A stretch of 64,000 nt of DNA from an uncultured Planctomycetota bacterium (GCA_964585305.1 CAZPDM010000005.1:36-64035), one strand, 5' to 3'; counted from the first letter of the stretch, positions 2,811-23,929 are shown. Numbers and translations: made by a program. Notes: generated from the letters alone by a model not told the origin.

Positions 2811-3371
2811 ATGACAAAAATATTTTTTCTTACACTTATATTATGTCTTCCATTTGTTTATAGTGCGCCAGTATTCTTTAACCAGGGTGTTGGAGCTAAC
2901 TTTCATGGATATGAACTTATTTCAGGAAGCACCTGGACATGGACACAAGCCAGAGATGCTGCCGCTGCAAGAACAATTGTTGTAGATGGAGTAACATATA
3001 CTGGCCATCTAGTTACTATTACTTCTGCAGCAGAAAATGAATTCATTCGTACAAATTTTAGTTGTACAATGAATCCCTGGATTGGTGCATACCAATATGA
3101 TAAGGCAGTAGAACCAGCAGGCCATTGGCGTTGGGTAACAGATGAAGTTTGGAGTTATACAAATTGGAATAGTGGAGAGCCTAATAATTCAGGTGGGGCT
3201 GAAGAATATGCCCAATTTTATAATACTGGATTTTGGAACGATCTGGCGAATAATGGACTTAGTGGATATATAGTAGAATATGATGTTGTTGCTCCCGAGC
3301 CAAATACATTAGGTTTATTATTAGTAGTATTTACAGGAATTTGGCTGCGACTGAAAACAAAAAAAAACTAG
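2811..3371 (+). CDS. Secreted C-type lectin domain protein with a PEP-CTERM sorting tail
   Basis: Signal peptide MTKIFFLTLILCLPFVYSA. CTLD motifs: WIGAYQ, WRWV, and NWNSGEPNN...FWNDL (EPN + WND Ca/sugar-site motifs). The C-terminus is VAPEPNTLGLLLVVFTGIWLRLKTKKN, i.e. PEP + TM + basic tail. Confidence 0.8.
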   Translation: MTKIFFLTLILCLPFVYSAPVFFNQGVGANFHGYELISGSTWTWTQARDAAAARTIVVDGVTYTGHLVTITSAAENEFIRTNFSCTMNPWIGAYQYDKAVEPAGHWRWVTDEVWSYTNWNSGEPNNSGGAEEYAQFYNTGFWNDLANNGLSGYIVEYDVVAPEPNTLGLLLVVFTGIWLRLKTKKN

Positions 3372-3406: not shown

Positions 3407-3436
3407 CCCGGCCAAGAGAATTTGCCGGGTTTTTTT
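3407..3436 (+). terminator. Intrinsic terminator after the lectin gene
   Basis: CCCGGC-caagagaattt-GCCGGG followed by T7. Confidence 0.7.
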
Positions 3437-3473
3437 GTTAAAAAAAGCATTTTAAAAATTTTAAGGGAAAAAT

Positions 3474-6400
3474 ATGGCCTATCAAATTGTAAAAATATTA
3501 GGCGAAGGCGGGATGGGAAAAGTCTATCAAGCAACAGATCCAGCACTCAATCGTACTGTTGCAATAAAAGCATTTCATGATAATATCATTCCGAATGCTA
3601 AAGCTGTCAAGCGTTTTATGAGAGAAAGCCAAATTTCAGCAAGTTTGGATCATCCCAATATTGTTAAAGTATACCAATTTGTAGTTGAAAATAATCGTCC
3701 ACTTTTAATCATGGAATACGTAGAAGGGATGCCCTTTTTTCAATATATTGAAAATCAAAAACTTAATTTAGAACAAAGCCTTGAAATCTTTGAAAAAATT
3801 GTTGAAGCTGTACATTATGCTCATCGAAAGCAAATTATTCATCGAGATATAAAACCATCAAATATTATGGTACGTACAAATGGAGAACCAATACTGATGG
3901 ATTTTGGAATCGCTAAAGCTGCACAAATTGAAGATTTAACTCGAACAGGTGAAATCATGGGAACGGTGCAGTATATGGCTCCCGAGCAGGCTTCAGGGCT
4001 TCGGCATGAGATGGATCATCGGGTAGATATTTATAGCTTAGGAGCAGTATTATATGAAATACTTACAGAAAAAACTGCTATCTCTTCTACAACTTTAACT
4101 GAAATGCTATTTGAAATAGGGGCAAAAGAAATTATTTTGCCACGGCAACACAATTCTAATATTTCAGAAGATATAGAACAAATTTGTATGAAAGCTCTTT
4201 GTAAAAATAAAGAACATCGTTACGAAACAGCTAAAGCTTTTGCTGAAGACATAAGAAATTATCGACAAGGAAAAAAAATTAAAGCATCTGGATTTATTCA
4301 AAAACAACAATGGAGAAAACGGTTCTCTATCCTAGGAATTATTTTTACAATTTTATTAGTAGGAATCGGAATTTTGTGGAGTTATCAAAATCTTAATAAT
4401 TCTCAAGCTGCACCTCAAACAAGTACTGCAAAAAAAATTGAGGAAGCATTAAATAATTCTCAAAAATTTTATGAACAAAAAGAATTTGCTCAAGGATATT
4501 TTTATTTAGAAGACTTTGCCAATGCAATTAGCAATGATAAAAATCATTACGATACTGAGAGAGAAAAATTAGAACCTCATCTAAAAAAATTTTTAACCGA
4601 GACATACACATTGGTACAAATTTATACATTAGCAAACTCTAACGAACAATTAGAATATCAAGCTAAACTTGAAGACATAGGAAAAAAATTTGGTTTAGAA
4701 GAATATATAAAAAATAATTTTTGGATAGGTTCTGAGGAAAATTTAAAACAAAAATTAACAAACTTTGCAACAAAATTTGCAGAGACGAAACAATGGCCTA
4801 AGATATGCTTTTATGAAGCCAAAAATGATTATGGATTTATGAGATATACTTTAGCTACACAAAAATTTCAAGATCTAGAATCATATTATTCTACATATCA
4901 AGGAGAATATCCTCTTCAAAAAATATTATGGGAATACTCAAAACTTTTGTTAACTTATAATCTTGGTTTATGCTACTTTCAACAAAAAAAATTCTCAGAA
5001 GCCGAAGAAAAATTTTCTAAAATCGAAAAAGAATGGAATAATAATATTTTCTTAGTTTTCATACAAAAACAAAAAGAAATTTTACAAAAAGAAAAGAAAA
5101 TAGAACAAAATCTATCTATGGATAGATTCTATGCAAATACTTTAGTATATTTAGGAACAAGCAAACTAGCTAATAATCTTTATTCTGAAGATTTTACTAA
5201 AAATACAACAACTGGAGAAAGCCAACAAAAATTAGTAGAGTCAATTGAAAGTATTCTAAATACTTTGCAACAAGAAAAATATATAAATGCAATTTCTCAA
5301 TATTCTGAAGAATGGGCATTATTACAAGAAATGAAAGCTAGAATGTCTATATGGAAAGCACCTCAAACAATTGAAAAAATAAATAATGCAATATCTATTA
5401 TTAATGGTTGCTTAGAAAAAAATCCCATGAGATTTTCTTGCTATTTAATTCGTGGTAGTGCTTATTTAGAGCTAAAACAATACGAAAGGGCTTTAGACGA
5501 TTTTGAATATGCACATCAACTAAATCCTGTACAAATAGAATCTACATCAAAATTATTACTTATTCTTCCATATTATCAAGCACCTAAATATGATGATATA
5601 GAAAATATTATTGGAGTTTTAAGCCGTTGGTGGCTAAGAATGAATATGAATGTTGTAGATATTTGGGAAGAAGATATTAGCAAAATACGTTCATATTACA
5701 GAACAAAATGGCAAGAACAAGAAACAATAGCTACATCTGCAAAAGATGCTGAAAAATTTTATCAATACTTATTTGCTTCAGAGTCTTTAGCAAATTTAGC
5801 ACAAAACTCTTTTCTAGCAATGCAACCCTATTCAGATACATTAAATTTTTTAGATAATAAAAAGAAAGAATTAGAAGAATCTCTTAATAACACTAAAGAT
5901 GAACAATCGAATAAAAAAATCCAAAAACAAATCAATACGATTCTTCGCTTAAAAGAAGATATTGAACAAAAGAAATTGGAAAAAACTAATAGCCAAACAC
6001 TATATTTATTGAGCAGTATTACTTATCAAAAAAGACCTTCAAATGAAATTTTAGAGGTATTTAGTCAAGTAGAACGACTACGTGTTCTTCATAATCTTAT
6101 TTTTAGCTTAGAATGTAAAACAAGAGAAGAATGTATCAAATTTTACCTAGCCGCAAGAATCCTAGCTCAATTACAAATACCAATACCTCAAGAAATCAAT
6201 CATAAAAAACCTACCAAAAAATATTATCGAATGCTTTTAGTAGATTTAATCCAAAATGAATTAAAATATCAGGAAACAAAAAAAATCATTATACTTCGTG
6301 TGCTACAAGAGATTGGCTATTTCGATGTAGGAAATCAAGATTTTATCTGTAAATTTGTTCAGAAAAAAAATGATGTATTTATAGAAATATTATCTCTTCC

Positions 6401-8510: not shown

Positions 8511-8518
8511 AAAATAAT

Positions 8519-8539
8519 GGGTACGAGGTTTTCGTACCC
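8519..8539 (+). other. Intergenic stem-loop between kinase paralogs 1 and 2
   Basis: GGGTACGA-ggttt-TCGTACCC (8-bp perfect stem). No U-tract follows. It ends 21 nt before ATG 8561. Confidence 0.6.
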
Positions 8540-8560
8540 ATGAAAGGATTAGTATCAATC

Positions 8561-11500
8561 ATGTCTTATAAAATTTTAAAAATACTAGGTGAAGGTGGAA
8601 TGGGAAAGGTTTACCAAGCGCTTGACACAACCTTAAATCGAATTGTTGCCATTAAAGCTTTCCATGAGAACATTGTGCCAAATGAAAAAGCTGCAAAGAG
8701 ATTTTTGCGTGAAAGTCAAATTTGTGCTAGTTTAGACCATCCTAACATCATTAAGGTTTATCAATTTACTTTCGAAAATAATCGTGCTATTTTAGTGATG
8801 GAATACATTGAAGGGGAATGTTTGCTGGAATATATTAAAAATAAAAAACCAAGCCAAGATAAAATATTAGAAATTTTTGCCAAAATAATAGAAGCTGTAC
8901 ACTATGCACATAGAAAACAAATTATTCATAGAGATATTAAACCAACAAATATTATTGTACGAGATAATGGCGAACCCGTACTTATGGATTTTGGAATAGC
9001 AAAAGCAGCGCAAATTGAAGACTTAACTCGGACAGGAGAACTGGTTGGAACTCCTCAATATATGTCTCCTGAACAAGCATCTGGAGAACGACATGCCGTG
9101 GATCACCGTGCAGACATCTATAGTCTAGGCGTCATTTTATACCAAATTTTAACAGAAAAACTTCCTATTACAGCAACTACTTTAAGTGAAATGTTAGAAA
9201 ACATAGCTACTGCAGAAATAATTTTGCCGCGAGAGTACAACCAAGAAATGGCTCCCAATCTTGAACAAATTTGCATGAAATCTCTTTGTCGCGATAAAGA
9301 AAAAAGATATGCTACAGCAAAAGAATTTGCTGAAGATTTATATAATTTTCAACAAGGAAAAAAAATTAAAGCTGAAAAGTTTATTCAAAAACAAAAATGG
9401 CAAAAATACTTTGCCAAGGTAGGAATTATTGCTGGCATATTTATTGCGATTCTAGCTTTCTTTTATGCTACTATAAATTTTTATTCAAAACCTGAAAATA
9501 CTTTTGATGAAAAAAAGCTACAAGAATATTTAAATAATTCACAAATATACTATTCCCAAAATAGCATAGCAAAAGGCTATTCTTACTTAGATGAATTTTC
9601 AACATTAGTAAGTAATAATAAGATATATTTCCAGGAAAATTTGTCACAATGCCAAGCTAATATAGAAAAATTCTTGCACGAAACATATTCTCTATCTCTA
9701 ATATATCTTTTAGGTGGATCTAATGAAGAAATTATTTATTTAGCTAAATGTGAAGAAATAGCAAAAAAAATTGATCTTTCAATGATCTCACAAATTAGAA
9801 ATAAGTATTGGAAACTGCCTATATCAGGACAGATGACACATCAAATAAACTCTATCAATGAATATCTTATTAAAGATTCCAACTGGCCTGTTACTATTTT
9901 TAAACAAGCATTACAAGAATATAAATCATATCAATATGAAGCTGCTGTTCAAAATTTTGAATTACTACGCACATATTATCTTAATTTTCAACCTCAAAAA
10001 CCTATTCAAAAAATTTGTTGGGAATATGCAAAGATTACTGTTGCTTATTATCTAGGGTTATGTTATGTCAACCAAAGAAAATTTGCTTCCGCTTCAAATA
10101 TTTTTTTAGATGCTCAACGATATTGGAAAGGAAATAACTTTGTAAAATTTATAGAAGAACATCAAGACATTTTACAAAAATCACAAAAATTTGAATCACG
10201 ATTACCTATAAGGAAATTATACGCCAATATTCTAATTTATTTAGGAACAAGCTTTATTGGAGATATTCCTTATACTAATGATCTAACATCTGATGATAAA
10301 GTTAACTATTCCAATTTAGTAAGTATTTTAGAAGAATTGACTTCTTATGAAAAAAATATTTCCGAATATTCTGAAGAATGGGCTTTATTACAAGAGTTTA
10401 AAGCTAGAATAGCTTTATGGAAAAAAAATGACGAAACATATATAAACAAAGAAAATAAAGAATACGCAATCAATTTAATTACTACTTGTTTAGAAAACAA
10501 TCCCATGCGTTTTTCCTGCTACTTAATACGCGGAACAGCCTATTTAGAATTAAAGGAATATAAAAAATCCTTTTACGATTTTGATTATGCTTCAAAAATA
10601 AATCCAGAACAAATAGAATCGCTTAGTAAAATTTTTAAAATTATTCCTTACTATCCTACGACAAGATACGAAAGTATTGAAAATATTGTTAGCATCCTTC
10701 ACAATTGGTGGGTACGTGCAGATTTAACAATTTTTGATTTCTTTGGAGATGATATTTCTAAAATACAAAAACATTTCCGAACGAAATGGCAAGAACAAGA
10801 AAATTCAGCGATTTCTATAAATGATGCAGAGAAATTTTATTCTCATCTTTTTGGCTCAGAAGAATTATCTAGTTTAGCAACAAATTCTTTTTTATCTATG
10901 CAAGCATATTCTCAAACATTAGAATTTTTGGAAAACAAAAAAAAAGAAATTAACAATAATTCCAGCATAGATTCATTCGAAAAACAAAAAAAATTAACAA
11001 AAATATCTGAGCTTATTTTTTCTTTGCAAGAAAAAGATAAAGAAAAATTTAAATACCAAGTTTTATACCTTCTGAGTATGATTTCCTATCAAAATAGAAT
11101 TCCAGAAGATATATTAGAAGAATTTACTAAAAATCCTAAGCGTCTGTATATAATCCATCGATTAGTATTCGACCGTGCATTTCAAGATGAATGGCCAAGT
11201 ATAAACAATTTAGAAGAAAAACAAGATTGGTTGAAACTATATTACTTAGGAGCGAGAGTACTTGCACATATACAAAAAGAAATTCCCCAAGAAATACTTC
11301 CAATCGAATATCAAACATTGCCATCATACCAAAAATATTATCGACCGCTTCTACTAGAGTTAGTAAAAAAAGAAAACAATGAAATATTAAAGATTATTTT
11401 ATTAAGAGCATTACAAGATATTACCTATTTTTCTTCAGAGCATCGTGAGTTCATTTGGCAAGTGAGCAGTAAACAAACACTCCATAAAGATCCTTTTATA

Positions 11501-13546
11501 GAAATGATATATTTTCCCCTATTGTTTAAAAGTGAACAAAAAGACACTCAAAAAAAATTTTACTCTTTTTTTCAACAATGCAGTTCTCTAGCAAAACAAA
11601 TTATTGTTTACACTTCGTATGATATAGATAATAAATTTTTTGAAAAACGATTGTATTTCGATATTCCCATGCAAAATCTTTGGGAGGAAGGATTATCAAG
11701 TTCTGACTACCGACTAAAAATGCTAAGCATTATCAATACTAAAAAAATTTTTAAATTCTCATATACTAATGAAAAAATTTGGCCTTTTTTACAACCATTC
11801 TTTTTCGATAAAAATCCTCTTTTACAAAAAGCCGCCTTAGTAGCAGCTTCAGAATTTTCCGAAATTCGAAAACTAAATTTTCCTGAATTTCAAAGAATAT
11901 GTTGGGAAATTTTAAAAAAATCAGATAATTCAGAAACTAAAAGAATGGCTGTTGTAAACTTATTACGCTCATCAGATGATAGAATTTTTGAATATATGGA
12001 AAACCAAAATTTGACATTTTTAGAAAAAGTAAACTTTTTTTTCTGTATAAATAGTAGCCAAATCAATATATCTTATGCTAAAAACTTTTTTAACTTTTTT
12101 GAAAAAAATATACGCAATCAAGAAAATAGTATTATGCTAACAATGTTCTGTTATTTTTTTCATGCTATACAAACATCATCTACAGATAGATTACAACGAA
12201 ATATATTGCAATCCTTTTTTGAAAATCTTATCATATCCTATTTAGATGAAGATGATTATACAATGAGATATTGGAGTATAATATCTTCTAGCAAGATTGA
12301 TGATCTTTCTCCCAGAATATGGCAAAAAATTGCCTCTAAAATAGGATCCAACCAAAATAAAATACTTGACAGTTTACAAATAGGAGCATTATTAAATATA
12401 GCTGTTCGCCAACCTAATTATCAAGAGTTAGTAAAGCTATGCCCACAATGGAAAAGTAGTATAATGGAAAAAGCTAAAACTCCCCAAAATTACCCACAAG
12501 AACTATACTACAGTATGTGGTTTTATTGGCAAATCTTGCAAAATAATAAAAATAATTATTTTGCTGAGACAAAAGATTTTATTACAAACGAAAACCCTAT
12601 TGCAATGGAAGAAAGATTTTTTACTACATTCGAAACAGAAATTTTTGATCCTGATTTTCTATTTCGTGCCAAATATGCTCTAGAAACTATGCTAGAAATT
12701 GGAAAAACAATGGGAGCTATTAAAGATAATGAATATGGCAGAAGTAGAATGATTAAGATGATATTAGCTTTAAGTAAAGTATACAAAAATAACAATGAAA
12801 TAGATAAAGCCCAACAGATATTAGAAACAGAAAATCTTCATAAGGAAAATCCTCAAATTGCACTTGCTTGGTTGCAATTAAAGTTTGACAATTCAGAACA
12901 AAATAACTTTATAAACAATGACGAAATAAAAATTTGGTGGAAAAATTGGCAAAATCAAAAATTAAACAACTGTAGAGATGAATCTATTCGCTTACAAATA
13001 AAAGCATTTTTACTACGCAAAGAAAAAAAATACAATGAAGCTATTCAAACATTAAAACAAGCACATATTCTCTGTCCAGAAGATAATAGCAATCAAATAG
13101 ATTTACTCGAAGTTTATTTTAAAGAACAAGCTGATTTAAAAAATGGAGAAATTGCTCTTTTTATGGCGCTCTATCATGCACAATATAAATCTCCATTTTA
13201 TTGGTATCGACTTAAATATTATGATTCCTATACATATAATTTAGAAACTTTTATAAAGTATCTAGAATATCTTGCTTATAATGCATGTGAATATCCTATT
13301 ACTTTTGAAAATATACAAAGCCTTGGAATTCCCAAAGATCAGTTAGGATATGTCTATTATTCTATTGGCAGACAAAAAACTGAAAAGCGTCAAATCTACC
13401 ATGCTATTTTCTGGTTTGAAAAAGCATATCAAGAAGGATATCGAATAAAAGATAGAATTCCAGAAGGTTTTGAAATCGCTGTAAAAAGAGCTTTATTATT
13501 TCCTAAGTTTTCACAAATTTGGCGTAAAATATATACAGTAAAATAA
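8561..13546 (+). CDS. Membrane Ser/Thr protein kinase, paralog 2
   Basis: Same architecture and catalytic motifs as paralog 1 (HRDIKPTN). The ORF opens at 8540, but the paralogs start at M-x-Y-(Q/K)-I. ATG 8561 gives MSYKILKILGEGGMGKVY, and 8540 abuts the hairpin. Confidence 0.9.
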   Translation: MSYKILKILGEGGMGKVYQALDTTLNRIVAIKAFHENIVPNEKAAKRFLRESQICASLDHPNIIKVYQFTFENNRAILVMEYIEGECLLEYIKNKKPSQDKILEIFAKIIEAVHYAHRKQIIHRDIKPTNIIVRDNGEPVLMDFGIAKAAQIEDLTRTGELVGTPQYMSPEQASGERHAVDHRADIYSLGVILYQILTEKLPITATTLSEMLENIATAEIILPREYNQEMAPNLEQICMKSLCRDKEKRYATAKEFAEDLYNFQQGKKIKAEKFIQKQKWQKYFAKVGIIAGIFIAILAFFYATINFYSKPENTFDEKKLQEYLNNSQIYYSQNSIAKGYSYLDEFSTLVSNNKIYFQENLSQCQANIEKFLHETYSLSLIYLLGGSNEEIIYLAKCEEIAKKIDLSMISQIRNKYWKLPISGQMTHQINSINEYLIKDSNWPVTIFKQALQEYKSYQYEAAVQNFELLRTYYLNFQPQKPIQKICWEYAKITVAYYLGLCYVNQRKFASASNIFLDAQRYWKGNNFVKFIEEHQDILQKSQKFESRLPIRKLYANILIYLGTSFIGDIPYTNDLTSDDKVNYSNLVSILEELTSYEKNISEYSEEWALLQEFKARIALWKKNDETYINKENKEYAINLITTCLENNPMRFSCYLIRGTAYLELKEYKKSFYDFDYASKINPEQIESLSKIFKIIPYYPTTRYESIENIVSILHNWWVRADLTIFDFFGDDISKIQKHFRTKWQEQENSAISINDAEKFYSHLFGSEELSSLATNSFLSMQAYSQTLEFLENKKKEINNNSSIDSFEKQKKLTKISELIFSLQEKDKEKFKYQVLYLLSMISYQNRIPEDILEEFTKNPKRLYIIHRLVFDRAFQDEWPSINNLEEKQDWLKLYYLGARVLAHIQKEIPQEILPIEYQTLPSYQKYYRPLLLELVKKENNEILKIILLRALQDITYFSSEHREFIWQVSSKQTLHKDPFIEMIYFPLLFKSEQKDTQKKFYSFFQQCSSLAKQIIVYTSYDIDNKFFEKRLYFDIPMQNLWEEGLSSSDYRLKMLSIINTKKIFKFSYTNEKIWPFLQPFFFDKNPLLQKAALVAASEFSEIRKLNFPEFQRICWEILKKSDNSETKRMAVVNLLRSSDDRIFEYMENQNLTFLEKVNFFFCINSSQINISYAKNFFNFFEKNIRNQENSIMLTMFCYFFHAIQTSSTDRLQRNILQSFFENLIISYLDEDDYTMRYWSIISSSKIDDLSPRIWQKIASKIGSNQNKILDSLQIGALLNIAVRQPNYQELVKLCPQWKSSIMEKAKTPQNYPQELYYSMWFYWQILQNNKNNYFAETKDFITNENPIAMEERFFTTFETEIFDPDFLFRAKYALETMLEIGKTMGAIKDNEYGRSRMIKMILALSKVYKNNNEIDKAQQILETENLHKENPQIALAWLQLKFDNSEQNNFINNDEIKIWWKNWQNQKLNNCRDESIRLQIKAFLLRKEKKYNEAIQTLKQAHILCPEDNSNQIDLLEVYFKEQADLKNGEIALFMALYHAQYKSPFYWYRLKYYDSYTYNLETFIKYLEYLAYNACEYPITFENIQSLGIPKDQLGYVYYSIGRQKTEKRQIYHAIFWFEKAYQEGYRIKDRIPEGFEIAVKRALLFPKFSQIWRKIYTVK

Positions 13547-13593
13547 AATTTACTGAATGGTCTGTCAACTAAGTTTTTGGATATTTAATTGAG

Positions 13594-13659
13594 AGGAATT
13601 GAACCTGCCACTGCAATTTTTTCTTTAAAGCCTTCATTTATAAGCGGTGGTCAATTCCT
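13594..13659. repeat. Long imperfect inverted repeat in the paralog 2/3 spacer
   Basis: AGGAATTGAACCTGCCACTGC ... GCGGTGGTCAATTCCT. There is a 9-bp outer stem (AGGAATTGA/TCAATTCCT) and an inner stem with 6 of 7 positions paired (CCACTGC/GCGGTGG), around a ~29-nt A/T-rich loop. Confidence 0.5.
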
Positions 13660-13748
13660 ACCATGCCCCTATGTGCATGGACAAGTATAATTAAGATAAC
13701 GAAATTATGTCTAACAATTTTATTGACAGACTACTTAAACTAAGCTTT

Positions 13749-13772
13749 CCCTCGTTCTTCTATAGAACGAGG
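13749..13772 (+). other. Intergenic stem-loop upstream of kinase paralog 3
   Basis: CCTCGTTCT-ttctat-AGAACGAGG (9-bp perfect stem). It ends 21 nt before ATG 13794. Confidence 0.6.
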
Positions 13773-13793
13773 AAAATTAAGGAATTCTCAAAT

Positions 13794-16700
13794 ATGGCCT
13801 ACCAAATAAAAAAAGTTTTAGGCGAAGGCGGCATGGGAATTGTCTATCAAGCAGTAGATACATCATTAAATAGAATTGTTGCTATAAAATCATTTCGAGA
13901 AAAAGTTGTTCCCACTGCTAAAGCTATCAAACGCTTTATGAGAGAGACAGAAATTTCTGCAAGTTTGGATCATCCTAATATTATTAAAGTATATCAATTT
14001 TTATCTGAAAATAATCGATCCTCTCTTATCATGGAATATATTGAAGGAGAGCCTTTACTAGATTACATCGAAAATCAAAAACCAAGTTTGGATAAAATTC
14101 TAGAAATCTTTGAGAAAGTGGTAGAAGCCGTTCATTATGCCCATCGAAAGCAAATTATTCATCGTGATATAAAACCATCTAATATTATGGTTCGCAAAAA
14201 TGGTGAGCCAGTACTTATGGATTTTGGTATTGCAAAAGCCTCTCAAGTAGAAGACTTGACACGATCAGGAGAATTAGTTGGAACACCTCAATATATGTCT
14301 CCTGAACAGGCATCTGGAAGTCGGAGAGAAATTGATTTCCGTACAGACATTTATAGCCTAGGTGCAATACTTTATCAAATCTTAACTAAAGCACGCCCTG
14401 TTGAAGGGGAAAACCTAACTGAAATTTTATACAATATATATGCAAAGCCCGTAATTTTACCCAGGGAGCGAAATCCAGAAATTTCAGTCGATCTTGAGCA
14501 AATTTGTATGAAAGCTCTTTGCAAAGAAAAAGATCAACGTTATGCCACCGCAAAAGCATTTGCGGAAGACTTAAGAAACTATCGAGAAGGAAAAAAAATT
14601 AAAGCGTCTGGATTTATACAGAAACAAAAATGGCAAAAACGCTTTATTATTATAGGAATTGTGTTCTTAGTTATGCTAGCAGGTATAGGAATTTGGAGTA
14701 GCTATAGAAATATCCAAAAATCTGAAAATGAAAAGAAATACCAACTCCAAGCTATTGCATCATTAGAAAAAAAAGTTGAAGATGCTTGGAAAAACGCAGA
14801 AGAATGTTATGCAAAGCAACAATTCGCAAAAGCATATTCCTACTTAGAAGAATTTTCTACCTATATCATCAGCGATAAAAAATTCTTTCTTGAAAGAAAA
14901 AATAATCTTCAACCTAAATTAGAAAAATTTTTGTATGAAACATACGCATTATCTCAAATTTATGCACTTGAAAAATCTAATGAAAGATTGCTTTATTTAG
15001 TTCAATTTCAAGAAACATGCAAACAGATAGAAGAAAGCAGCAGCCAGTATACTAAACACTGGGTAGTAAAAGAAAAAGGAAAAAGCATTTTAACAGAAGA
15101 TTATTTTTATGAAGCAAAGAAAAACTATAACTCTCGACAATTTAGTACAGCTATAGAAAAATTTGAAAATTTAAGAACGCATTATTCTTCATTTGAAAGT
15201 ATCTATCCTATCCAAAAATTATTACAACAATACGCAAATATTGTTAATACCTATCAGCTAGGATTATGTTATTTTCAACAAAAGAAATTTAAAACGGCAT
15301 TTGAACACTTTTCTAATGCCAAAGAAAAGTTAGAACAAAGCAATTTTTTCGCATTTGTGCGAGAGCAACAAGAAATATTGCAACAAGTAAAAAAAATGGA
15401 ACAAAATTTTTCTATAGAAAAATTTTACAGCAACATGCTGATATATCTGGCAAGCAGTCGGATTGGAGAAATTCCCTATTCAGAAAATATCTTTTTCAAA
15501 GATAGCAAATCTAATGAAAAAGAATACGATCCAGACTTGATAAAATATATTACAAATATTTTAGATTTGTTAGAACAAAAAAGATATAGTGAAGTTCTCT
15601 CTCATTACTCAGAGGAATGGGCATTACTCCAAGAATTGAAAGCTAGATTGCTTATTTGGAAAAATTCAGGAGAAAGAGAAAAAAATATAAGAAATTCTAT
15701 TTTTCTTATGGAAGAATGTTTAAAAGAAAATCCAATTCGAGATTCTTGTTACTTGATATTAGGCAGTGCTTATTTGGAACTTAAAGAATATGAACGATCT
15801 TTAAATTCTTTCGAATATGCTTTTCAAATCAATCCCCAACAAGTAGAATCTATTAGTAAATTTGTTGAAATCCTTCCCAATTATCAATCTCTAAAATATA
15901 ATGATATGGAAAATATCATTGGAGTTTTTTTGCGTTGGTGGCTACGAATCAACATGACTATTGTAGATATTCATGAAGAAGACATTATACGAATTCGTTC
16001 TAATTTTAGAAAAAAATGGCAAGAGCAGGAAAATTCTACAGCTCTTGTTAAAGATGCAGAAATAATTTATCCTCATTTATTTAGTGTAGAATCCCTTGCT
16101 CAATTAGCACAGACTTCTTTTCTAGGAATGCGCCCATGCTCTCAAGCATTACAATTTTTAGAAGCGAAAAGAAAATCAATTGAAGAAGAATTAAAAAAAC
16201 CTGAAACAACTAATTTAGAGTCATTAAAAAATAAACACAAAATCGTCTCTAAAATTATTGGAGAAGTTGAACAAGAAAATGCACAAAATTATAGCAGCCA
16301 AACTCTTTACTTATTAAGTAGTATTCCATATCAAAATAGAATTCCAGAAAATATCGTCGCAGAATTTACAAATCTTGAAAAACCAGAATATTTAAGAACA
16401 ATTTACAATCTAGTATTTAAAAAAGATTTTAGAAACAACTGTGAATCTGAAGAAGACTGGCAAAAACTATATTATCTAGGTGCCCGTCTTCTTGCTCATA
16501 CACATATTACTATCCCCCAATTTTTACAAAAAGAAATAGAAGTGGTACCTTCATCGCCTTTTTCTAAAAAATATTTTCGTACTCTTCTTATAGATTTAAG
16601 TAAAAGGGAAATTCAAGAACCATTAAAAATTATTTTACTAAAAGCATTACAAGAAGTTGGATATTTTGATACAGATAACAATTATTTTATTTGGCAAGTT

Positions 16701-18776
16701 GCAAGAGATATAAAAAAATATAACAACAATCCCTTTATTGAAATGATAATTTCTTCTCTTATCCCATTTGATAACAAAGATAATACTAAAAAGCAATGGT
16801 TTGAATTCTTTAGCCAATGCAGTCCTCTCACTAGACTTTGGATTGTTCATACTACAGAAGATTTTGATGATATTGTCTATTATGGAGATAGAGAAAAATT
16901 CTTTAATGTAATTGATTCCACTTGGGACAAAGGATTCTATTGCACAGAAGACTATCGCCAACAAATGCTAAGCATTATTCTAACAGATAAAATCGGACAT
17001 CTGCAAAGAAAAGTTCCCAACCCTAAACCAATCTTTCATAGAATGAAAAAATTTTTCCAACATGAGAATGCTATTTTACAAAAAGCAGCATTAGCCCTTT
17101 TTACAGAATCCGATACTTTACGAAAAGATATACATAAAGACTTTACAAACACTTGCAAAATAATTTTGGATAGCGATGCAAAATGGGAAATAAAACTTAT
17201 GGCCAAGACTGCACTTATTAGAATGGCTGACTCCCAAACTTTAAAAGCTATACAAGAAAAAGAAACGACCAATTTTGAAAAAATTGCTTTTCTTTATGGA
17301 CTCTATGGACAGGAAAAAGAACTTTTAGATTATCTTGATGGAATTTTAGCAATTTGTAAAACTTTTCTTGAAAATCCAAGCGCAGAAGGACAAGGTATAA
17401 TTCAAGGAATGCTTTCTCATTTCTATCCATTTTTACAAAATCTTTTAGTTGAAATTGCACATAGAAGTCTCATTCGTAATTTTTTTGAAAAATCTTTGGA
17501 AAAATGTATCTATAGTCAATATCCAGACTCTCTTTATTGGGCTTTAATCGCAACATCCAAATCTGATCATATATCAAAAATAGTATGGAAAAAAATAGCC
17601 AAAGATTTGTTAGAAAAACCAAATGATGGAAATATTTTAGGTTCATTATTAAATATTGCTGCAAAGAATCCTAATGATCCTGAATTAAAAAAAGAAGCCA
17701 TCCAATGGCATAAAATTTTGGAAGAAAAACTAAAAGAACCTAAAAAAAATAAAAAGCAATTGATGTCTGTCCTTTGGTTTTATCGTGAATTATTACGTAG
17801 TCATCAATTTAGCGATAAACAAAGTTTTAATTTAATCATGCAATCCGAAAATTATATTTCGATTGATGAATATATTATAAGAAGTTTAGAAAATTGCCAT
17901 TTAGATCCAAACATGCAAGAACGTGCGCAAAAATCCCTAGAGACAATTATAAAAATAAGTACTGCTATTGAAAGTATTAAAGGCGATTTCTATGAACGTA
18001 GATATTTCCTACGTTCTATGAAACAACTTTGTAAGATTTATGAACAAAAAAAAGAATTTAAAAATATTTGGGCTATTTTAGAAAAAGAAAATCTACATAA
18101 TATAGAAATAGAAATTGCACATCTCTGGCTAAAGTTAAAAATAGTATATGAACCCAATGATCATCAAATTGAAAACTTCTGGAAAAATTGGAAAGAAAAA
18201 GAAATATCTGATTGTCGAACGGAATCATTACGACTGCAAATGCAGGCAATGTTAGAAAGGCAAAATAAACAATATAAAGAAGCTCTTCAACATTTAAAAT
18301 ACGCTTATATGCTTTGTCCAGAAGATAGCGAAATTCAAACAAATATGATAGAAATTTATTTGTATGATATATCTGATTTAAATATGGCAGAAAAATTATT
18401 ACCTATAGCTATTACAAAATCTGATTATAAAAACTCTTTACGCTGGCTATATGCACAATATTATGCAATGAAAAGAGAGTATGATGTGGTTGAAGACATT
18501 TTAGCTAAACTAGCTTTTCCATTAAGAATAGATGATGTACAACGATTGAATATTCCCAAAGAAAAATTAGGAATTATTTATTCGACTATAGCTAAAAAAT
18601 ATATAGACGACTATAATTACTATAATGTTACATATTGGCTCGATAAAGCATATCAAGAAGGTTACCGCGTCCATAAAAAAACATCAAAAAAATTGGAAAA
18701 AAACGCAAGAGCAATATCTATAAAATATCCTAAATTTAGAGAAGTTTGGAATAAAATCTACATAGATAAAAAATAA
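13794..18776 (+). CDS. Membrane Ser/Thr protein kinase, paralog 3
   Basis: MAYQIKKVLGEGGMGIVY, VAIK, HRDIKPSN, DFG, SPE, one TM, and a conserved C-terminal region. The 29-aa extension from 13707 has no counterpart in the paralogs and would span the hairpin. Confidence 0.9.
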   Translation: MAYQIKKVLGEGGMGIVYQAVDTSLNRIVAIKSFREKVVPTAKAIKRFMRETEISASLDHPNIIKVYQFLSENNRSSLIMEYIEGEPLLDYIENQKPSLDKILEIFEKVVEAVHYAHRKQIIHRDIKPSNIMVRKNGEPVLMDFGIAKASQVEDLTRSGELVGTPQYMSPEQASGSRREIDFRTDIYSLGAILYQILTKARPVEGENLTEILYNIYAKPVILPRERNPEISVDLEQICMKALCKEKDQRYATAKAFAEDLRNYREGKKIKASGFIQKQKWQKRFIIIGIVFLVMLAGIGIWSSYRNIQKSENEKKYQLQAIASLEKKVEDAWKNAEECYAKQQFAKAYSYLEEFSTYIISDKKFFLERKNNLQPKLEKFLYETYALSQIYALEKSNERLLYLVQFQETCKQIEESSSQYTKHWVVKEKGKSILTEDYFYEAKKNYNSRQFSTAIEKFENLRTHYSSFESIYPIQKLLQQYANIVNTYQLGLCYFQQKKFKTAFEHFSNAKEKLEQSNFFAFVREQQEILQQVKKMEQNFSIEKFYSNMLIYLASSRIGEIPYSENIFFKDSKSNEKEYDPDLIKYITNILDLLEQKRYSEVLSHYSEEWALLQELKARLLIWKNSGEREKNIRNSIFLMEECLKENPIRDSCYLILGSAYLELKEYERSLNSFEYAFQINPQQVESISKFVEILPNYQSLKYNDMENIIGVFLRWWLRINMTIVDIHEEDIIRIRSNFRKKWQEQENSTALVKDAEIIYPHLFSVESLAQLAQTSFLGMRPCSQALQFLEAKRKSIEEELKKPETTNLESLKNKHKIVSKIIGEVEQENAQNYSSQTLYLLSSIPYQNRIPENIVAEFTNLEKPEYLRTIYNLVFKKDFRNNCESEEDWQKLYYLGARLLAHTHITIPQFLQKEIEVVPSSPFSKKYFRTLLIDLSKREIQEPLKIILLKALQEVGYFDTDNNYFIWQVARDIKKYNNNPFIEMIISSLIPFDNKDNTKKQWFEFFSQCSPLTRLWIVHTTEDFDDIVYYGDREKFFNVIDSTWDKGFYCTEDYRQQMLSIILTDKIGHLQRKVPNPKPIFHRMKKFFQHENAILQKAALALFTESDTLRKDIHKDFTNTCKIILDSDAKWEIKLMAKTALIRMADSQTLKAIQEKETTNFEKIAFLYGLYGQEKELLDYLDGILAICKTFLENPSAEGQGIIQGMLSHFYPFLQNLLVEIAHRSLIRNFFEKSLEKCIYSQYPDSLYWALIATSKSDHISKIVWKKIAKDLLEKPNDGNILGSLLNIAAKNPNDPELKKEAIQWHKILEEKLKEPKKNKKQLMSVLWFYRELLRSHQFSDKQSFNLIMQSENYISIDEYIIRSLENCHLDPNMQERAQKSLETIIKISTAIESIKGDFYERRYFLRSMKQLCKIYEQKKEFKNIWAILEKENLHNIEIEIAHLWLKLKIVYEPNDHQIENFWKNWKEKEISDCRTESLRLQMQAMLERQNKQYKEALQHLKYAYMLCPEDSEIQTNMIEIYLYDISDLNMAEKLLPIAITKSDYKNSLRWLYAQYYAMKREYDVVEDILAKLAFPLRIDDVQRLNIPKEKLGIIYSTIAKKYIDDYNYYNVTYWLDKAYQEGYRVHKKTSKKLEKNARAISIKYPKFREVWNKIYIDKK

Positions 18777-18780
18777 AAAA

Positions 18781-18809
18781 AGTTTCTTAAGACACTTTCT
18801 TAAGAAACT
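18781..18809 (+). other. Intergenic stem-loop between kinase paralogs 3 and 4
   Basis: AGTTTCTTAAGA-cactt-TCTTAAGAAACT (12-bp perfect stem). No U-tract follows. It ends 26 nt before ATG 18836. Confidence 0.6.
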
Positions 18810-18835
18810 CCCATATATTAAAAAAAGAAAATAAT

Positions 18836-21800
18836 ATGCCATATAAAATTATTAAAATACTTGGTGAAGGCGGAATGGGACAAGTGTATCAAGCGGTTGA
18901 TATAAATTTGAATCGTACTGTCGCGATGAAAGCCTTCCATGAAAAAGTCGTCCCAAATATAAAAGCAGTAAAAAGATTTATGCGTGAAAGTCAAATTTCT
19001 GCAAGCCTAGATCATCCTAATATTATTAAAGTTTATCAATTTACAGTTGAAAATAATCGACCATTTCTAGTGATGGAATATGTTGAAGGTCAGCCTTTAA
19101 TGGACTATATTGCGACTGAAAGTCCCAGCCTAGATAAATTATTAGAAATATTTGAAAAAGTCGTAGATGCCGTTCATTATGCTCATAGAAAACAAATTAT
19201 CCATCGTGATATTAAACCTTCTAATATTATGATCCGAAATAATGGCGAACCTGTCTTGATGGATTTTGGAATTGCTAAAGCAATTCAAATTGATGATTTA
19301 ACACGTACAGGGGAAGTGATTGGAACCGTACAATATATGGCTCCTGAACAAGCATCCGGAGAAAAACGTGCTGTAGATCATCGTGTCGATATATATAGTT
19401 TAGGTGCAGTTCTATATCAAATTCTTACTAAAAAAACTCCTATACAATCTCAAACACTTACAGAAATGCTATTTGAACTTAACAAAACGGAAATTATTTT
19501 ACCTTCTCAACATAATTCTGAAATTTCTCCTGAGCTTGAACAAATTTGCATGAAAGCTCTTTGTAAAGATAAAGAGCAACGATATCCTACGGCTAAAGCA
19601 TTTTCTGAAGATTTAAAAAACTATCGACAAGGAAAAAAAATCAATGCTGCGGGTTTTATTCAAAAACAACAATGGCGCAGAAAAATATTCCATTTATCAA
19701 TTATTTTGGGAATAATTCTATCTGTTGGAATTGTTGCTTTATTAAGCCATCTTATCATCAACAAATTAAATTCGCCAATAGACCCCTTAGAAAATGCTCT
19801 TTTTATAGTCGAACAAAAATTGGGAATGGCAAAAAACTATTACGAAAATAACGAGATTGTACAAGGATACTCGTGTTTAGAAGAATTTGTTAATCTGGTT
19901 GATAATAATCCATCCCTCTATCAAAAAAATAAAGATAAATTTTCATCATCTTTAAATAAGTTCCTCCATGAAACATACTCTCTAGCACAAATATATCATT
20001 TGGCAAATATGAGAGAGGAAGAGATTTATTTAAATAAATTTCATGATACAGCAGAAAAATTTCAACCAGATCTACAAAATAGCATTTCTAATAATTATTG
20101 GAAAGCTATTGAGCCAACCATCAATGGGCAAGAAAAAAATTTAACAAAAGAAAATATTCAACAAATTGAGTTAGTTAAAAACAATATTTTAAAAAATTTT
20201 AATTGGCCTATTGAAGTTTTAAATCAAGCTAAAAAAGACTACAAATCTTTTCAACATGAAGAGGCTATTCAAAAATTTGAGCAACTTCTTACATATTACA
20301 CTTTTTTTTCACCAAAAGAATCTATTCAAAAAATTTTATGGGAATATGCGAAGATTGCAATTTCTTACCAAATCGGCCTTTCTTACGTAAAACAACAAAA
20401 ATATATATTAGCTTTACAATATTTTAAGAGTGCAGAAAAAAATTGGGATAAAAATAATTTTTCTAAATTCATGAATAAACATCTTGAAATGTTGAATAAG
20501 TCTCAAAAAATTGAACAAAATTTTCCTATAAAAAAAATCTATGCAAATATTCTTATTCATATAGGATCTTGCATCATTAACAATATTTTGTATACCGAAG
20601 ACCTTACAAAAAAGGATAACATTGACTTTAATAAATTGATCGCAATGGTAGAAGAAATAAAAAAATATGAACAAGATATTTCTGAATATTCTGAAGAATG
20701 GACGTTATTACAAGAACTCAAAGCAAGAATATATTTATGGATGCCATCCAGCAATAAAGAAACAACTATGAAATATGTAATTAACTTGATGGATATATGT
20801 TTACAAAAAAATCCTATGAGAGATTCTTGCTATTTGATCCGAGGGATAGCATATTTAGAATTAAAAAATTATGAAAAATGCTTAGAAGACTTTGAATTTT
20901 CTTCTCAAATCAATCCTCAGCAAATAGAACCGTTGATAAAATTTTTTGAAATTTTTCCTCATTATCAACATCCCAAATACGATAATGTAGAAAAAATTAT
21001 TGGGATTGTTCATCGTTGGTGGCTGAGAGTAAATATGGCATACATAGATACATGGGAAGATGACGTAACACGGATGAAAATGTATTTTCGTGCAAAATGG
21101 CAAGAACAGGAAGTAAATAGTATTTCGATTGCAATGTCTGAAAAATTTTATTCCCTGCTTTTTGATAGTAATGAAAAATTTTCAAAATTAGCTAAAGAAT
21201 CTTTTTTAGAAATGCAACCATATTCTAGCACATTAGAATTTCTTAAAATAAAAGAAAAAGAACTAGAAACGCAAGATTCAACTCACCAAAACATTGAAAC
21301 TCAACGAAAACTAAAAATTCTTTCAGACATCATCAACTCTGTAAAAGAAAAAAACAATGCACGTCTTATTGATCAAACTTTATATCTTTTATCTTCTGTA
21401 TCTTTTGAAAAAAATATTCCTAAGGAAATTTTAAAAATTTTCCAAGACGAAGAACGTCTTAGTATCCTTCATCGTTTAGTATTCGAAAAAGCCTTTCAAA
21501 AAGAAGTTCGAGAATATTATACAAGCAATTCCAAAGAAAACCATTGGTTCAAATTATATTACCTTGGGGCATCTATTTTAGCTCAAATCCCTATTATTAT
21601 CCCACAAAAAATTATAGCTGAGAACGCCCATATTTTTTCAAAATATCCTAGAACAAATCATTACTATCGGTTTATTTTAGCTAATTGGAGTAAACAAGAA
21701 AATAATCCTCAAATAAAAGTTATTTTACTTCGTGTTTTACAAGGAATTGGATATTTTGATTTAGAAACCCAAAAATTTCTTGAAAAATTTGCTAGCAATA

Positions 21801-23884
21801 AAGATTATCTAGGAGATCCTTTTATAGAAACAGTTGCAACCCCTCTAATAGTTGCAAATTTTGATCATAAAAAAGAAATTTTTCATAATTATTTCTATCT
21901 TTGTACTCCCTTAGCTAAAATTTGGATTATGCATAATATTTCTCTTTTAGAGCAGAAAATTCCAAATGATAGCTGGCAAAATTTTCATATAGAAATGAAA
22001 AAAATATGGGAAGAAAATTTTATACATAGCGACATCCGTAATAAAATGTTAGCTATTATAGCTACTAAAGCTCTATTTAAGTGGAATGTAAATGATGAAT
22101 TGTTCAATAAATATTGGAATGATTTTAAAAAACTCTATGAAGATAAAAATACACGAATTCAAAAAACCGCATTAGTTCTAGCTTGCGAATTTGAGCAATT
22201 TCGTAAGAAAGCACAAGATCCACTACAAAAAATTTGCTGGAATATTTTGGAAAATAAATCGATAACTAATCAAGAAATTTCGATTATAGCAAGCCTATTT
22301 TTATTAAAAATTAAAGATCAGAAAATTATTGCTCAAATGGAAAATACAGAAACGAATATATTAGAAAAAATTATGTTCTTGTACTCTATTCCTAAAGATC
22401 AAGATGCGGCTAAAACGCTTATGAATATAGTAAGTACTACAAAAGATAATGTAGAAAAAGGTATGGTTATTGCGGTTTTATGCCATTTCTATTATGGAAT
22501 CAACAGTTTTATCAAGGATAATATACAAAAAAACGCTTTAAAAGCTTTTATAGAAAATCTCATTATTAATTCTCTTAAAGAAGGCGAATCAGGCCTAATT
22601 TTTTGGAGTTTAATATCAACAACAAAAATCGATGACCTTTCTAAAAGAGTATGGGGTGAAATCTATAATAATTTAGAAAAAGAAGACACAACAATTCCTC
22701 TAATGAGATTAGGGGCGTTGATCAATCTATCTATAAAACAACCCAATAATAAAGAATTGACAAATCTATATACTACCTTACAAAAGAAAGAATCTGAACA
22801 AAAGTTAATTTTTCAAAAAAAACCAGATAGCGAAAAGCATAGAAAATCTTTATTATCTTTAATGTGGTTTTATAGACAAGTTTTACGAAATAATCAATAT
22901 AATCATTTACTCGATTCTAACCTTATGGCTGAGGAAAACTTTATTGTTATTGACGAACGATTTATAAAAACTCTTGAAAAGGATATCAGCGAGCCGATTC
23001 TCCTAACACGCTATATTTCAGCATTAGAAAAGGCAATCGAATTAGGCAAGCTAATTAAATCTCTCGATAGTAATTTTTATGAACGTTATGCTTTTCTACA
23101 ATTGATTCAATATATGGCACTTCTTTATTATAAAAATAAACAATATTCTCAAGCATTAGATATATTAGCTTATGACAACTTATATAAAACAGAACCAATT
23201 ATTGCCGCTCTTTGGTTGAAATATAAACTAAGTATTGAGCCTAATTCTCCTGAAATTGATATATGGTGGCAAGAATGGCAAAAAAAAGACATGCAAGATT
23301 ATCGTAGTGAATCCTTACGTTTATATATGGAATCTTTATTCTATCAACATAAAAAAGAATACCAGTTAGCTATTGATAAACTTGAAAAGGCTTTCATTTT
23401 ATGCCCAGAGGATAGCCAATTTCTTTCTGATTTAATTGGGATTTATTTAAAAGAGCAAAAAAATATGGAGAATCTGGACATATTTCTTGAGCTTGCCATC
23501 AAACACGCCAGTTATAAAGGAAATTTACTTTGGAGAAAAGTACAATATTTTGCAGTTCAAAAAGATATTTCAAATGTTATTGACACACTTAAAGCCTTAG
23601 TTATATTGGAAAGCGAATATCCTATTACTTTAGAAAACATCACTGAATTAAATATCGATAAAAAATACTATGGAGAAATATATTTTTCCATTGCTATAAA
23701 AAAAGCAGATCGTAGAAATACCTCTCAAACAATATTTTGGCTTACTAAAGCTCACGAAGAAGGATATAGCATTACAGAAGAAAAATTAAAAGAGCTGTGG
23801 ATACTCAAAGATTTTATTGGTGTAGTTCTTAATCAACATCCAAGTTTCAGAAAGATTTGGCAAAAACTAGTAATTAAGAAATAG
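18836..23884 (+). CDS. Membrane Ser/Thr protein kinase, paralog 4
   Basis: MPYKIIKILGEGGMGQVY, VAMK, HRDIKPSN, DFG, APE, TM segment LSIILGIILSVGIVALL. It shares the same conserved C-terminal islands as paralogs 1-3. Confidence 0.9.
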   Translation: MPYKIIKILGEGGMGQVYQAVDINLNRTVAMKAFHEKVVPNIKAVKRFMRESQISASLDHPNIIKVYQFTVENNRPFLVMEYVEGQPLMDYIATESPSLDKLLEIFEKVVDAVHYAHRKQIIHRDIKPSNIMIRNNGEPVLMDFGIAKAIQIDDLTRTGEVIGTVQYMAPEQASGEKRAVDHRVDIYSLGAVLYQILTKKTPIQSQTLTEMLFELNKTEIILPSQHNSEISPELEQICMKALCKDKEQRYPTAKAFSEDLKNYRQGKKINAAGFIQKQQWRRKIFHLSIILGIILSVGIVALLSHLIINKLNSPIDPLENALFIVEQKLGMAKNYYENNEIVQGYSCLEEFVNLVDNNPSLYQKNKDKFSSSLNKFLHETYSLAQIYHLANMREEEIYLNKFHDTAEKFQPDLQNSISNNYWKAIEPTINGQEKNLTKENIQQIELVKNNILKNFNWPIEVLNQAKKDYKSFQHEEAIQKFEQLLTYYTFFSPKESIQKILWEYAKIAISYQIGLSYVKQQKYILALQYFKSAEKNWDKNNFSKFMNKHLEMLNKSQKIEQNFPIKKIYANILIHIGSCIINNILYTEDLTKKDNIDFNKLIAMVEEIKKYEQDISEYSEEWTLLQELKARIYLWMPSSNKETTMKYVINLMDICLQKNPMRDSCYLIRGIAYLELKNYEKCLEDFEFSSQINPQQIEPLIKFFEIFPHYQHPKYDNVEKIIGIVHRWWLRVNMAYIDTWEDDVTRMKMYFRAKWQEQEVNSISIAMSEKFYSLLFDSNEKFSKLAKESFLEMQPYSSTLEFLKIKEKELETQDSTHQNIETQRKLKILSDIINSVKEKNNARLIDQTLYLLSSVSFEKNIPKEILKIFQDEERLSILHRLVFEKAFQKEVREYYTSNSKENHWFKLYYLGASILAQIPIIIPQKIIAENAHIFSKYPRTNHYYRFILANWSKQENNPQIKVILLRVLQGIGYFDLETQKFLEKFASNKDYLGDPFIETVATPLIVANFDHKKEIFHNYFYLCTPLAKIWIMHNISLLEQKIPNDSWQNFHIEMKKIWEENFIHSDIRNKMLAIIATKALFKWNVNDELFNKYWNDFKKLYEDKNTRIQKTALVLACEFEQFRKKAQDPLQKICWNILENKSITNQEISIIASLFLLKIKDQKIIAQMENTETNILEKIMFLYSIPKDQDAAKTLMNIVSTTKDNVEKGMVIAVLCHFYYGINSFIKDNIQKNALKAFIENLIINSLKEGESGLIFWSLISTTKIDDLSKRVWGEIYNNLEKEDTTIPLMRLGALINLSIKQPNNKELTNLYTTLQKKESEQKLIFQKKPDSEKHRKSLLSLMWFYRQVLRNNQYNHLLDSNLMAEENFIVIDERFIKTLEKDISEPILLTRYISALEKAIELGKLIKSLDSNFYERYAFLQLIQYMALLYYKNKQYSQALDILAYDNLYKTEPIIAALWLKYKLSIEPNSPEIDIWWQEWQKKDMQDYRSESLRLYMESLFYQHKKEYQLAIDKLEKAFILCPEDSQFLSDLIGIYLKEQKNMENLDIFLELAIKHASYKGNLLWRKVQYFAVQKDISNVIDTLKALVILESEYPITLENITELNIDKKYYGEIYFSIAIKKADRRNTSQTIFWLTKAHEEGYSITEEKLKELWILKDFIGVVLNQHPSFRKIWQKLVIKK

Positions 23885-23885: not shown

Positions 23886-23929
23886 AAAAAAAAAGTCTGT
23901 TGGTCAAGAAAACCAACAGACTTTTTTTT
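23886..23929. terminator. Bidirectional intrinsic terminator between convergent genes
   Basis: A9-GTCTGTTGGT-caagaaa-ACCAACAGAC-T8. Confidence 0.8.

Follow-up and report, generated by a model that had tools for sequence, protein, structure and literature searches.

A tandem array of four receptor-type Hanks kinase genes and its probable origin by lineage-specific expansion of a rare subfamily

What are four large receptor-kinase genes doing side by side in one bacterial genome: are they a set of related receptors that has been kept over a long time, or redundant copies of recent date? The question is raised by a stretch of DNA of 64 kb (the window, by which we mean the whole of the sequence analysed), in which ORF finding delimits four collinear plus-strand genes, K1 to K4, arranged head-to-tail between positions 3474 and 23884. 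In our view, the array has probably arisen by tandem expansion, within one lineage, of a rare receptor-type Hanks kinase subfamily, and has long been kept under constraint. The evidence for this reading, and for the alternatives that compete with it, is drawn from gene structure, fold, divergence and the loci of outside relatives.

Gene models and catalytic domains

K1 (3474-8510; 1678 aa) consists of a Hanks kinase (aa 1-275), a transmembrane (TM) helix (approximately aa 284-302, nt 4323-4379) and a helical C-terminal region (nt 4401-8507), as delimited by its ORF, Pfam matches, motifs, hydropathy and structure models. It is followed on the same strand by K2 (8561-13546; 1661 aa; conserved start MSYKIL) and K3 (13794-18776; 1660 aa; conserved start MAYQIK), both placed by ORF, Pfam, motifs and the register of a direct-repeat family (D2), and by K4 (18836-23884; 1682 aa), placed by ORF, Pfam and motifs, in which the ATP-lysine motif takes the variant form VAMK. 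The ORF finder had set the starts of K2 and K3 upstream, at 8540 and 13707. We assigned them to 8561 and 13794 because D2 repeats in the register 3474/8561/13794/18836 and because the N-termini of all four proteins are conserved as M-x-Y-(Q/K)-I. In addition, the start at 8540 falls within the hairpin between K1 and K2, and a start at 13707 would cross another hairpin at 13746-13776. The start context 'ATATGGCCTATCAAAT' is common to K1 and K3.

The translations of all four ORFs are free of internal stops. The array region has approximately 29% G+C, a composition that predicts about one stop per 12 codons and gives a log probability (ln P) of about -150 for 1,660 codons without one; a stop-free length so improbable marks the four ORFs as real genes. 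The original prediction of four intact same-strand paralogs with a shared architecture (Hanks kinase, one TM helix and a helical region of ~1,350 aa) thus holds, with the starts of K2 and K3 corrected. Further copies or fragments of these genes were not found within the 64-kb window.

The Pfam Pkinase model (PF00069) matches each of the four proteins at E-values of 1e-53 to 1e-57, with 181-193 bits against a cut-off of 31.7. The GEGGMG, VAIK/VAMK, HRDIKP(S/T)N, DFG and A/SPE motifs occur at aa 10, 29, 123, 143 and 169 in all four copies, so that the earlier claim of complete catalytic motifs without frameshifts is matched by identical motif positions and uninterrupted frames. A block of kinase-domain DNA said to be shared by copies 1 and 3 is likewise present, at 3822 and 14142. 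By these motifs, the proteins are Hanks-type kinases of the RD type that appear catalytically competent.

The best NCBIfam match to the kinase domain is NF033483 (PknB/Stk1 PASTA), at 292-307 bits against a cut-off of 450 and with no match to PASTA itself. The chlamydial-type PknD model (NF009651) scores 163-182 bits against 839 and covers profile positions 3-305 only, and MAD6 (NF047741) and PglW (NF033442) reach 154-170 against 460 and 86-95 against 990, respectively. NCBIfam gave no match outside the kinase domain of any of the four proteins. Membership in the PknB/PASTA, chlamydial PknD, MAD6, PglW and PD-T4-6 families was rejected, given scores below cut-off and the absence of the corresponding domains or partners.

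These partial matches to MAD6 and PglW, together with PADLOC models for PD-T4-6 and mad6 that match the kinase strongly (E-values down to 3e-88), could be taken to suggest a set of defence or predation kinases comparable to PD-T4-6, Stk2 and MADS, in which the outward domains diversify in an arms race; the fact that the paralogs have diversified mostly outside the kinase would fit such a role. However, all these matches are limited to residues ~3-273, which form the generic Hanks fold, the MAD6 and PglW scores lie far under the NCBIfam cut-offs, and methyltransferase, BREX or other defence partner genes were not found in the window. Selection also speaks against an arms race, no segment having a dN/dS of 1 or more. 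To our knowledge, no known defence kinase carries an ectodomain of 1,350 aa. We therefore regard a defence function as very improbable, and return to the tandem expansion of a receptor-type kinase as the preferred reading.

Membrane topology and the C-terminal solenoid

Each of the four proteins has one strongly hydrophobic helix, at approximately aa 282-316, with a Kyte-Doolittle (KD) hydropathy of 2.5-2.7 over 19 residues, and a hydrophobic TM segment is present in all 13 of the family members compared. The net charge of the N-terminal flank of this segment is +4 to +5 for K1-K4 and +2 to +6 when all 13 family members are considered, and the C-terminal flank is mostly near-neutral. Counting lysine and arginine residues, K1-K4 have four to five on the side of the kinase and zero to four, largely offset by acidic residues, on the other; in these proteins and in most of their relatives, positive charge is thus biased toward the kinase. 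Hydropathy and the positive-inside rule together predict a cytoplasmic kinase and a periplasmic C-terminal region. Under the preferred reading, each product would be a single-pass inner-membrane protein, with its kinase in the cytoplasm and an alpha-solenoid of ~1,350 aa in the periplasm.

The C-terminal region itself is only sparsely covered by family models. Pfam tetratricopeptide repeats (TPRs) score above cut-off in K1 (TPR_1, 38.0 vs 27.8; TPR_2, 27.6 vs 27), K3 (TPR_2, 29.2 vs 27) and K4 (TPR_2, 33.2; TPR_1, 27.9), and the Pfam search of K2 returned no TPR match above cut-off. Such recognisable repeats are isolated, one or two per protein, and the bulk of the 1,350 aa is divergent solenoid without a Pfam or NCBIfam family model. 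One canonical TPR, at ectodomain residues ~326-380, draws ~1,500 TPR proteins in profile searches, and the sole match in a sequence profile search of the PDB was a 77-residue TPR segment, 2kc7.

An AlphaFold2 model of K1 ectodomain residues 1-1195, built from four sequences, is all helical with a pLDDT of 65, rising to 70-90 over most of residues 440-1195; the first ~240 residues past the TM helix are poorly modelled (pLDDT <40). A model of the conserved core (ectodomain residues 275-640), built from 12 family sequences, is also all helical, with a pLDDT of 84.9 and a pTM of 0.78. Foldseek searches with the long model returned solenoids only, namely UNC-45, CAND1, karyopherins, IFT-A and SF3B1 (E-values 7e-7 to 1e-4; TM scores 0.1-0.3), and the core model gave weak matches to TPR arrays only (best E-value 4.6e-3; TM score ≤0.3). 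As modelled, the C-terminal region is an alpha-solenoid in which a TPR-like conserved core is followed by HEAT/ARM-like repeats.

The known HEAT/ARM-like solenoids are for the most part cytoplasmic. In keeping with this, every Foldseek match of the long model is a eukaryotic protein of the cytosol or nucleus, and perhaps the solenoid is itself cytoplasmic, the hydrophobic segment being a mere anchor or a misprediction in scaffold kinases of the PknG/PknK type. We give this possibility a slim chance. A single pass places the two flanks of the segment on opposite sides of the membrane, and the side with the kinase must be the cytoplasmic one because a kinase requires ATP. The hydropathy of the segment in all four copies, its occurrence in all 13 family members and the excess of positive charge on the kinase side also argue against a cytoplasmic solenoid, as does DeepTMHMM-based work that puts the TPR arrays of analogous Planctomycetota Ser/Thr kinases (STKs) in the periplasm (PMC11032199). 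A periplasmic solenoid is, therefore, what we assume in the following.

Divergence, constraint and duplication history

Pairwise amino-acid identity among K1-K4 is 42-47% overall and 35-41% in the C-terminal regions; by windows of 100 alignment columns, it is 61-83% in the kinase and 22-66% in the remainder. At the nucleotide level, the kinase is 71-75% and the C-terminal region 54-59% identical. As had been claimed, the C-terminal regions have diverged apart from ordered islands, the best of which lie at alignment columns ~500-1000, with peak conservation at ~700-800. The solenoid core (ectodomain residues ~275-640) retains 47-51% identity among paralogs, and approximately 170 positions of the solenoid, mostly aromatic or structural, are invariant among the copies.

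Synonymous differences are saturated throughout, with pS of 0.57-0.68 in the kinase and 0.52-0.68 in C-terminal segments. With dS saturated, dN/dS values of 0.11-0.18 for the kinase, 0.25-0.65 for the individual C-terminal segments and 0.35-0.55 when this region is taken as a whole are upper bounds rather than estimates. Because synonymous sites are saturated in the kinase too, the likeness of kinase DNA between copies reflects protein constraint and not homogenisation. We also rejected recent gene conversion: identical runs between copies are at most 14-23 nt, with exact matches of 21-23 nt as the longest, kinase pS is as saturated as that elsewhere, and the runs do not exceed what codon-column shuffles predict beyond the level to be expected from 12 comparisons (lowest count 34 of 500, unremarkable).

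Taken at face value, a C-terminal identity of just 35-41% might indicate that the copies are redundant and drifting toward loss, a reading that the data contradict and that we find scarcely credible. Four uninterrupted ORFs of ~5 kb have persisted in DNA whose composition (29% GC) predicts roughly one stop per 12 codons, dN/dS lies well below 1, the ~170 solenoid positions are invariant, branch lengths of the four copies are equal in a neighbour-joining (NJ) tree, and fragments or partial extra copies are absent from the window. The C-terminal regions do not behave neutrally either, with dN/dS at or below 0.65 in every segment and no decay. The data thus support the view that the copies are old, intact and constrained, and not recent redundant duplicates; as far as sequence can tell, the maintained set that was originally proposed stands.

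In an NJ tree with outside relatives, the window genes form their own clade, resolved as (K1,K3),(K2,K4). Informative nucleotide sites favour this arrangement (241 vs 156 and 177), with a weak signal and a tree close to a star. The topology indicates that a two-gene A-B unit was duplicated as a whole, and implies that the 247-nt spacer between K2 and K3, the one long gap in the array, may be the junction between the duplicated units. Under the favoured scenario, one ancestral gene would have given rise to an A-B pair, and duplication of this unit long ago to A-B-A'-B' (K1-K2-K3-K4). Purifying selection would have acted on all four genes since then, preserving the kinase, the juxtamembrane segment and the solenoid core as other solenoid surfaces diverged.

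Family loci, neighbouring genes and known systems

An exhaustive HMMER search of 1.84 billion representatives with a profile of the C-terminal region gave 1,589 matches at E ≤0.001, nearly all of them to profile positions ~326-380, where the one canonical TPR lies. Collinearity with the profile narrowed these to just nine outside relatives (P0004-P0008, P0035, P0056, P0069 and P0087), and all nine share the N-terminal Hanks kinase, the single TM helix and the collinear C-terminus. Their identity to the window proteins is 15-25% in the C-terminal region and 38-59% in the kinase. The ectodomain subfamily is thus very rare, with about nine outside clusters in 1.84 billion representatives. Alignment searches of genome and metagenome contigs with the C-terminal region found no related locus, and full-length searches of contigs found generic kinase-domain matches only, plus one further locus (L089). 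Three word-index protein searches returned only the window paralogs or generic kinases of ≤550 aa and missed the HMMER relatives; swamped by K/E/N/I-rich words or short kinases, they are uninformative on rarity.

The loci of the relatives are varied. P0007 and P0069 are single-copy at their own loci, and P0008 is split into two ORFs and adjoins a transposase. P0035, P0056 and P0087 lie on three separate contigs of one ENA assembly and are thus dispersed paralogs. At 19 nt past P0004, a second kinase of the family begins, with 84% identity over 160 aa, and a paralogous N-terminus lies 76 nt past P0006; head-to-tail pairs at these two loci show that tandem pairs recur in the family. Both contigs end there, which would be the outcome if repeated kinase DNA interrupts assembly. 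The window array is the sole fully assembled array in the family, and intact arrays are rarely seen because short-read assemblies of related organisms break at such repeats.

The window also allows the limits of the transcript to be predicted. A hairpin with a U-tract resembling an intrinsic terminator (3407-3437, plus strand) marks the upstream limit of the array, and a bidirectional terminator composed of an A-tract, a 10-bp stem and a U-tract (23895-23929), between K4 and a convergent FG-GAP gene, marks the downstream limit. Intergenic gaps within the array are 50-59 nt except for the K2-K3 spacer (13547-13793). Plus-strand hairpins between K1 and K2 (8517-8541; -15.9 kcal/mol, z -4.7) and between K3 and K4 (18778-18812; -12.9 kcal/mol, z -6.0) have no U-tract on that strand, and the K2-K3 spacer contains an imperfect inverted repeat (~13594-13659) and the hairpin at 13746-13776 (z -3.4), also without a U-tract. 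With U-tract terminators flanking the array and internal hairpins devoid of U-tracts, K1-K4 are probably a single transcription unit, in which the internal hairpins, as their form suggests, may be processing sites or stabilising structures. Rfam found no family in the window; a tRNA-like appearance of the inverted repeat in the K2-K3 spacer was dropped after ARAGORN found no tRNA.

Tight packing and the lack of internal U-tract terminators are also what might be expected if K1-K4 all had to assemble into a single hetero-oligomeric complex, a periplasmic scaffold or receptor, with divergence reflecting subunit specialisation. The conserved solenoid core could then be an oligomerisation interface, and TPR domains have been proposed as dimerisation modules in bacterial Ser/Thr kinases (bSTKs; bioRxiv 10.1101/2025.01.12.632604). 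We regard this main rival as unlikely. At several loci of relatives (L001 and L006) the gene is single-copy, and the three paralogs of one ENA assembly are on separate contigs; with relatives single or dispersed, four co-encoded subunits are not a requirement of the family. Moreover, full catalytic motifs in all four copies would be unusual for pure scaffold subunits.

Returning to a retained set of individual receptors, each solenoid might bind a different partner in the periplasm or envelope, either protein or glycan. Binding would alter oligomerisation of the receptor, and this change would in turn promote autophosphorylation of the activation loop (the TRTG...APE segment) and phosphorylation of cytoplasmic targets.

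A conserved neighbour gene, including any candidate ligand or substrate, was not found in common among the family loci, and neighbourhoods differ at every locus. The one exception links the window with L089, as each has a small gene for a PEP-CTERM lectin-like protein adjacent to its kinase. In the window, this gene encodes a secreted C-type lectin (2811-3371, plus strand) with a PEP-CTERM-like tail, seen by eye and not detected by the PEP-CTERM HMM at E 0.01, and its link to the array is putative. In L089, a TSP_C/ConA-like PEP-CTERM gene lies immediately upstream of a kinase fragment that is 52% identical to K1; because its C-terminus is off the contig, membership of this fragment in the family is only likely. 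The placement of a lectin-like gene immediately upstream of the kinase in two loci, together with tandem copies in at least three assemblies, makes it tempting to speculate that the solenoids dock small exosortase-sorted PEP-CTERM lectin-like proteins, and that tandem paralogs act as combinatorial receptors for surface glycans or prey. This would be a long shot. Further upstream in the window is a pseudokinase fused to an FGE-sulfatase domain (111-2477, minus strand), with HGNLIPS in place of HRDIKPS and no G-loop. Both neighbours are as first described, and the pseudokinase is a true one.

The original prediction also held that no described system has this layout, which proved not to be the case. 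According to Odelgard et al. 2024 (PMC11032199), Planctomycetota STKs mostly cross the membrane once, with the Pkinase domain in the cytoplasm and arrays of TPR or WD40 repeats in the periplasm. In this phylum, FGE-sulfatase is the third commonest accessory domain of STKs, kinase-FGE-sulfatase fusions have been described, and lineage-specific duplication drives STK expansion (PMC11032199). In addition, pairs of the same family occur in two other assemblies, as described above. The Planctomycetota TPR kinases of 'Ca. Uabimicrobium amorphum', Gemmataceae and Saltatorellus, likened here by description, resemble K1-K4 in their N-terminal cytoplasmic Pkinase, single TM helix and long, predicted periplasmic region of helical repeats. 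Lineage-specific duplication, Pkinase-FGE-sulfatase proteins in the same genome and, by one marker, a Planctomycetota-like host are also shared with Planctomycetota STKs. Unlike these TPR kinases, K1-K4 have only one or two Pfam-recognisable TPRs and belong to a very rare subfamily. Myxobacteria, a different phylum, offer a further likeness in STK expansions with C-terminal TPRs and adjacent tandem duplicates, according to the description of Perez et al. (2008) in the paper that cites them (PMC11032199). As the published Planctomycetota architecture and the myxobacterial tandem duplicates both match, the layout is of a described kind.

Other Hanks kinases share parts of the design. C-terminal TPRs occur in five of the 42 bSTK families of a bacterial kinome atlas (bioRxiv 10.1101/2025.01.12.632604). 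PknB/Stk1 PASTA kinases have a cytoplasmic RD Hanks kinase, a juxtamembrane linker, one TM helix and an extracytoplasmic sensor domain, whereas K1-K4 have no PASTA domain and a helical ectodomain that is approximately five times larger. In Mycobacterium PknG, too, a TPR module follows the Hanks kinase and has been implicated in dimerisation or the binding of partners, but PknG is soluble and cytoplasmic, with a rubredoxin-like domain and a short TPR; homology of K1-K4 to PknG was not detected beyond the kinase and generic TPR.

Two things are new here: the ectodomain subfamily, which is very rare, and a four-gene array that is intact. The array reveals no new signalling principle. Its value is as a fully assembled example of how a receptor-kinase repertoire may grow, through duplication of a two-gene unit and long retention of the copies under constraint, and it defines a very rare ectodomain family whose confidently modelled TPR-like core is available for structural or ligand work.

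The window encodes BamA, FadL and LspA, and the host is thus diderm. A deep Planctomycetota-like lineage is tentatively suggested by one marker, rplC, which is 69% identical to rplC of a Planctomycetota-labelled metagenome-assembled genome (MAG) and ≤52% identical to all others found; the gene stands alone in both the window genome and this MAG.

Tandem and split relatives of the kinase array

Head-to-tail organization is found in outside relatives of K1-K4, the four tandem kinase paralogs of the window. P0004 and P0006, two such relatives from the Logan assemblies SRR26159224-26, each have a second paralog beginning directly behind them in the same orientation (outside contigs L170:5824-6303, L003:10388-10486 and L004:7569-7661), and their contigs break off within the kinase DNA that is repeated. 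Short-read metagenomes therefore probably under-assemble the tandem arrays of this kinase family. A further family member, in JGI 3300010429, is broken into two adjoining ORFs of 748 and 777 aa, which are separated by a gap of 5 nt and lie next to a DDE transposase (L169:2-4587); the split reflects either a frameshift introduced by sequencing or a true pseudogene.

Flanks and spacer of the kinase array

Convergent with K4 is an FG-GAP repeat lipoprotein-like gene (23938-25143, minus strand) with three internal DNA repeats of 129 nt (24290-24649). Beyond it, a row of six secreted or lipoprotein-like ORFs on the minus strand (25170-31215) has no significant Pfam family, the weak FlgT_N match (E 0.0036) being under the cut-off. 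Weak paralogy links the ORFs at 26090 and 27774 (28% identity), 27774 and 28619, and, via a common C-terminal module, 27073 and 29515. This row is a second, older tandem family adjoining the kinase array.

At two loci, a small secreted lectin-like gene with a PEP-CTERM(-like) tail lies directly upstream of a kinase, which belongs to the K1-K4 family in the window and likely does at the outside locus L089. The window gene (2811-3371) encodes a C-type lectin, whereas the L089 protein is TSP_C/ConA-like (950-1639, minus strand, adjoining the kinase at 1878-2606, plus strand); the two lectins share no homology except in the tail.

Within the array, an imperfect inverted repeat in the 247-nt K2-K3 spacer (13547-13793), GGAATTGAACCTGCCACTGC ... 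GCGGTGGTCAATTCC, vaguely resembles a tRNA arm. Neither ARAGORN nor Rfam gives a match, and the fold z-score is only -1.8.

Plus-strand proteins and an isolated L3 gene

Three other proteins are encoded on the plus strand further downstream. The first, an unusual 460-aa fusion (48043-49425), combines HU-type DNA-binding, VpsR-like and HATPase_c_2 domains, the last being anti-sigma-factor-kinase-like. The second (49929-51233) is secreted, with a coiled-coil segment and tandem acidic 'ENT(P/T)EE...' repeats (DNA repeats at 50392-50965). The third, of 1218 aa (52835-56491), contains an Hsp70/actin-like 'DFGTTNS' motif and has a weak SrfB match under the cut-off.

The ribosomal protein L3 gene (51722-52372) is isolated, without S10/L4/L23 neighbours, as is its 69%-identical counterpart (outside contig L009:2544-3197) in Planctomycetota bacterium RA.bin53, the closest MAG. 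Such isolation looks like a lineage trait.
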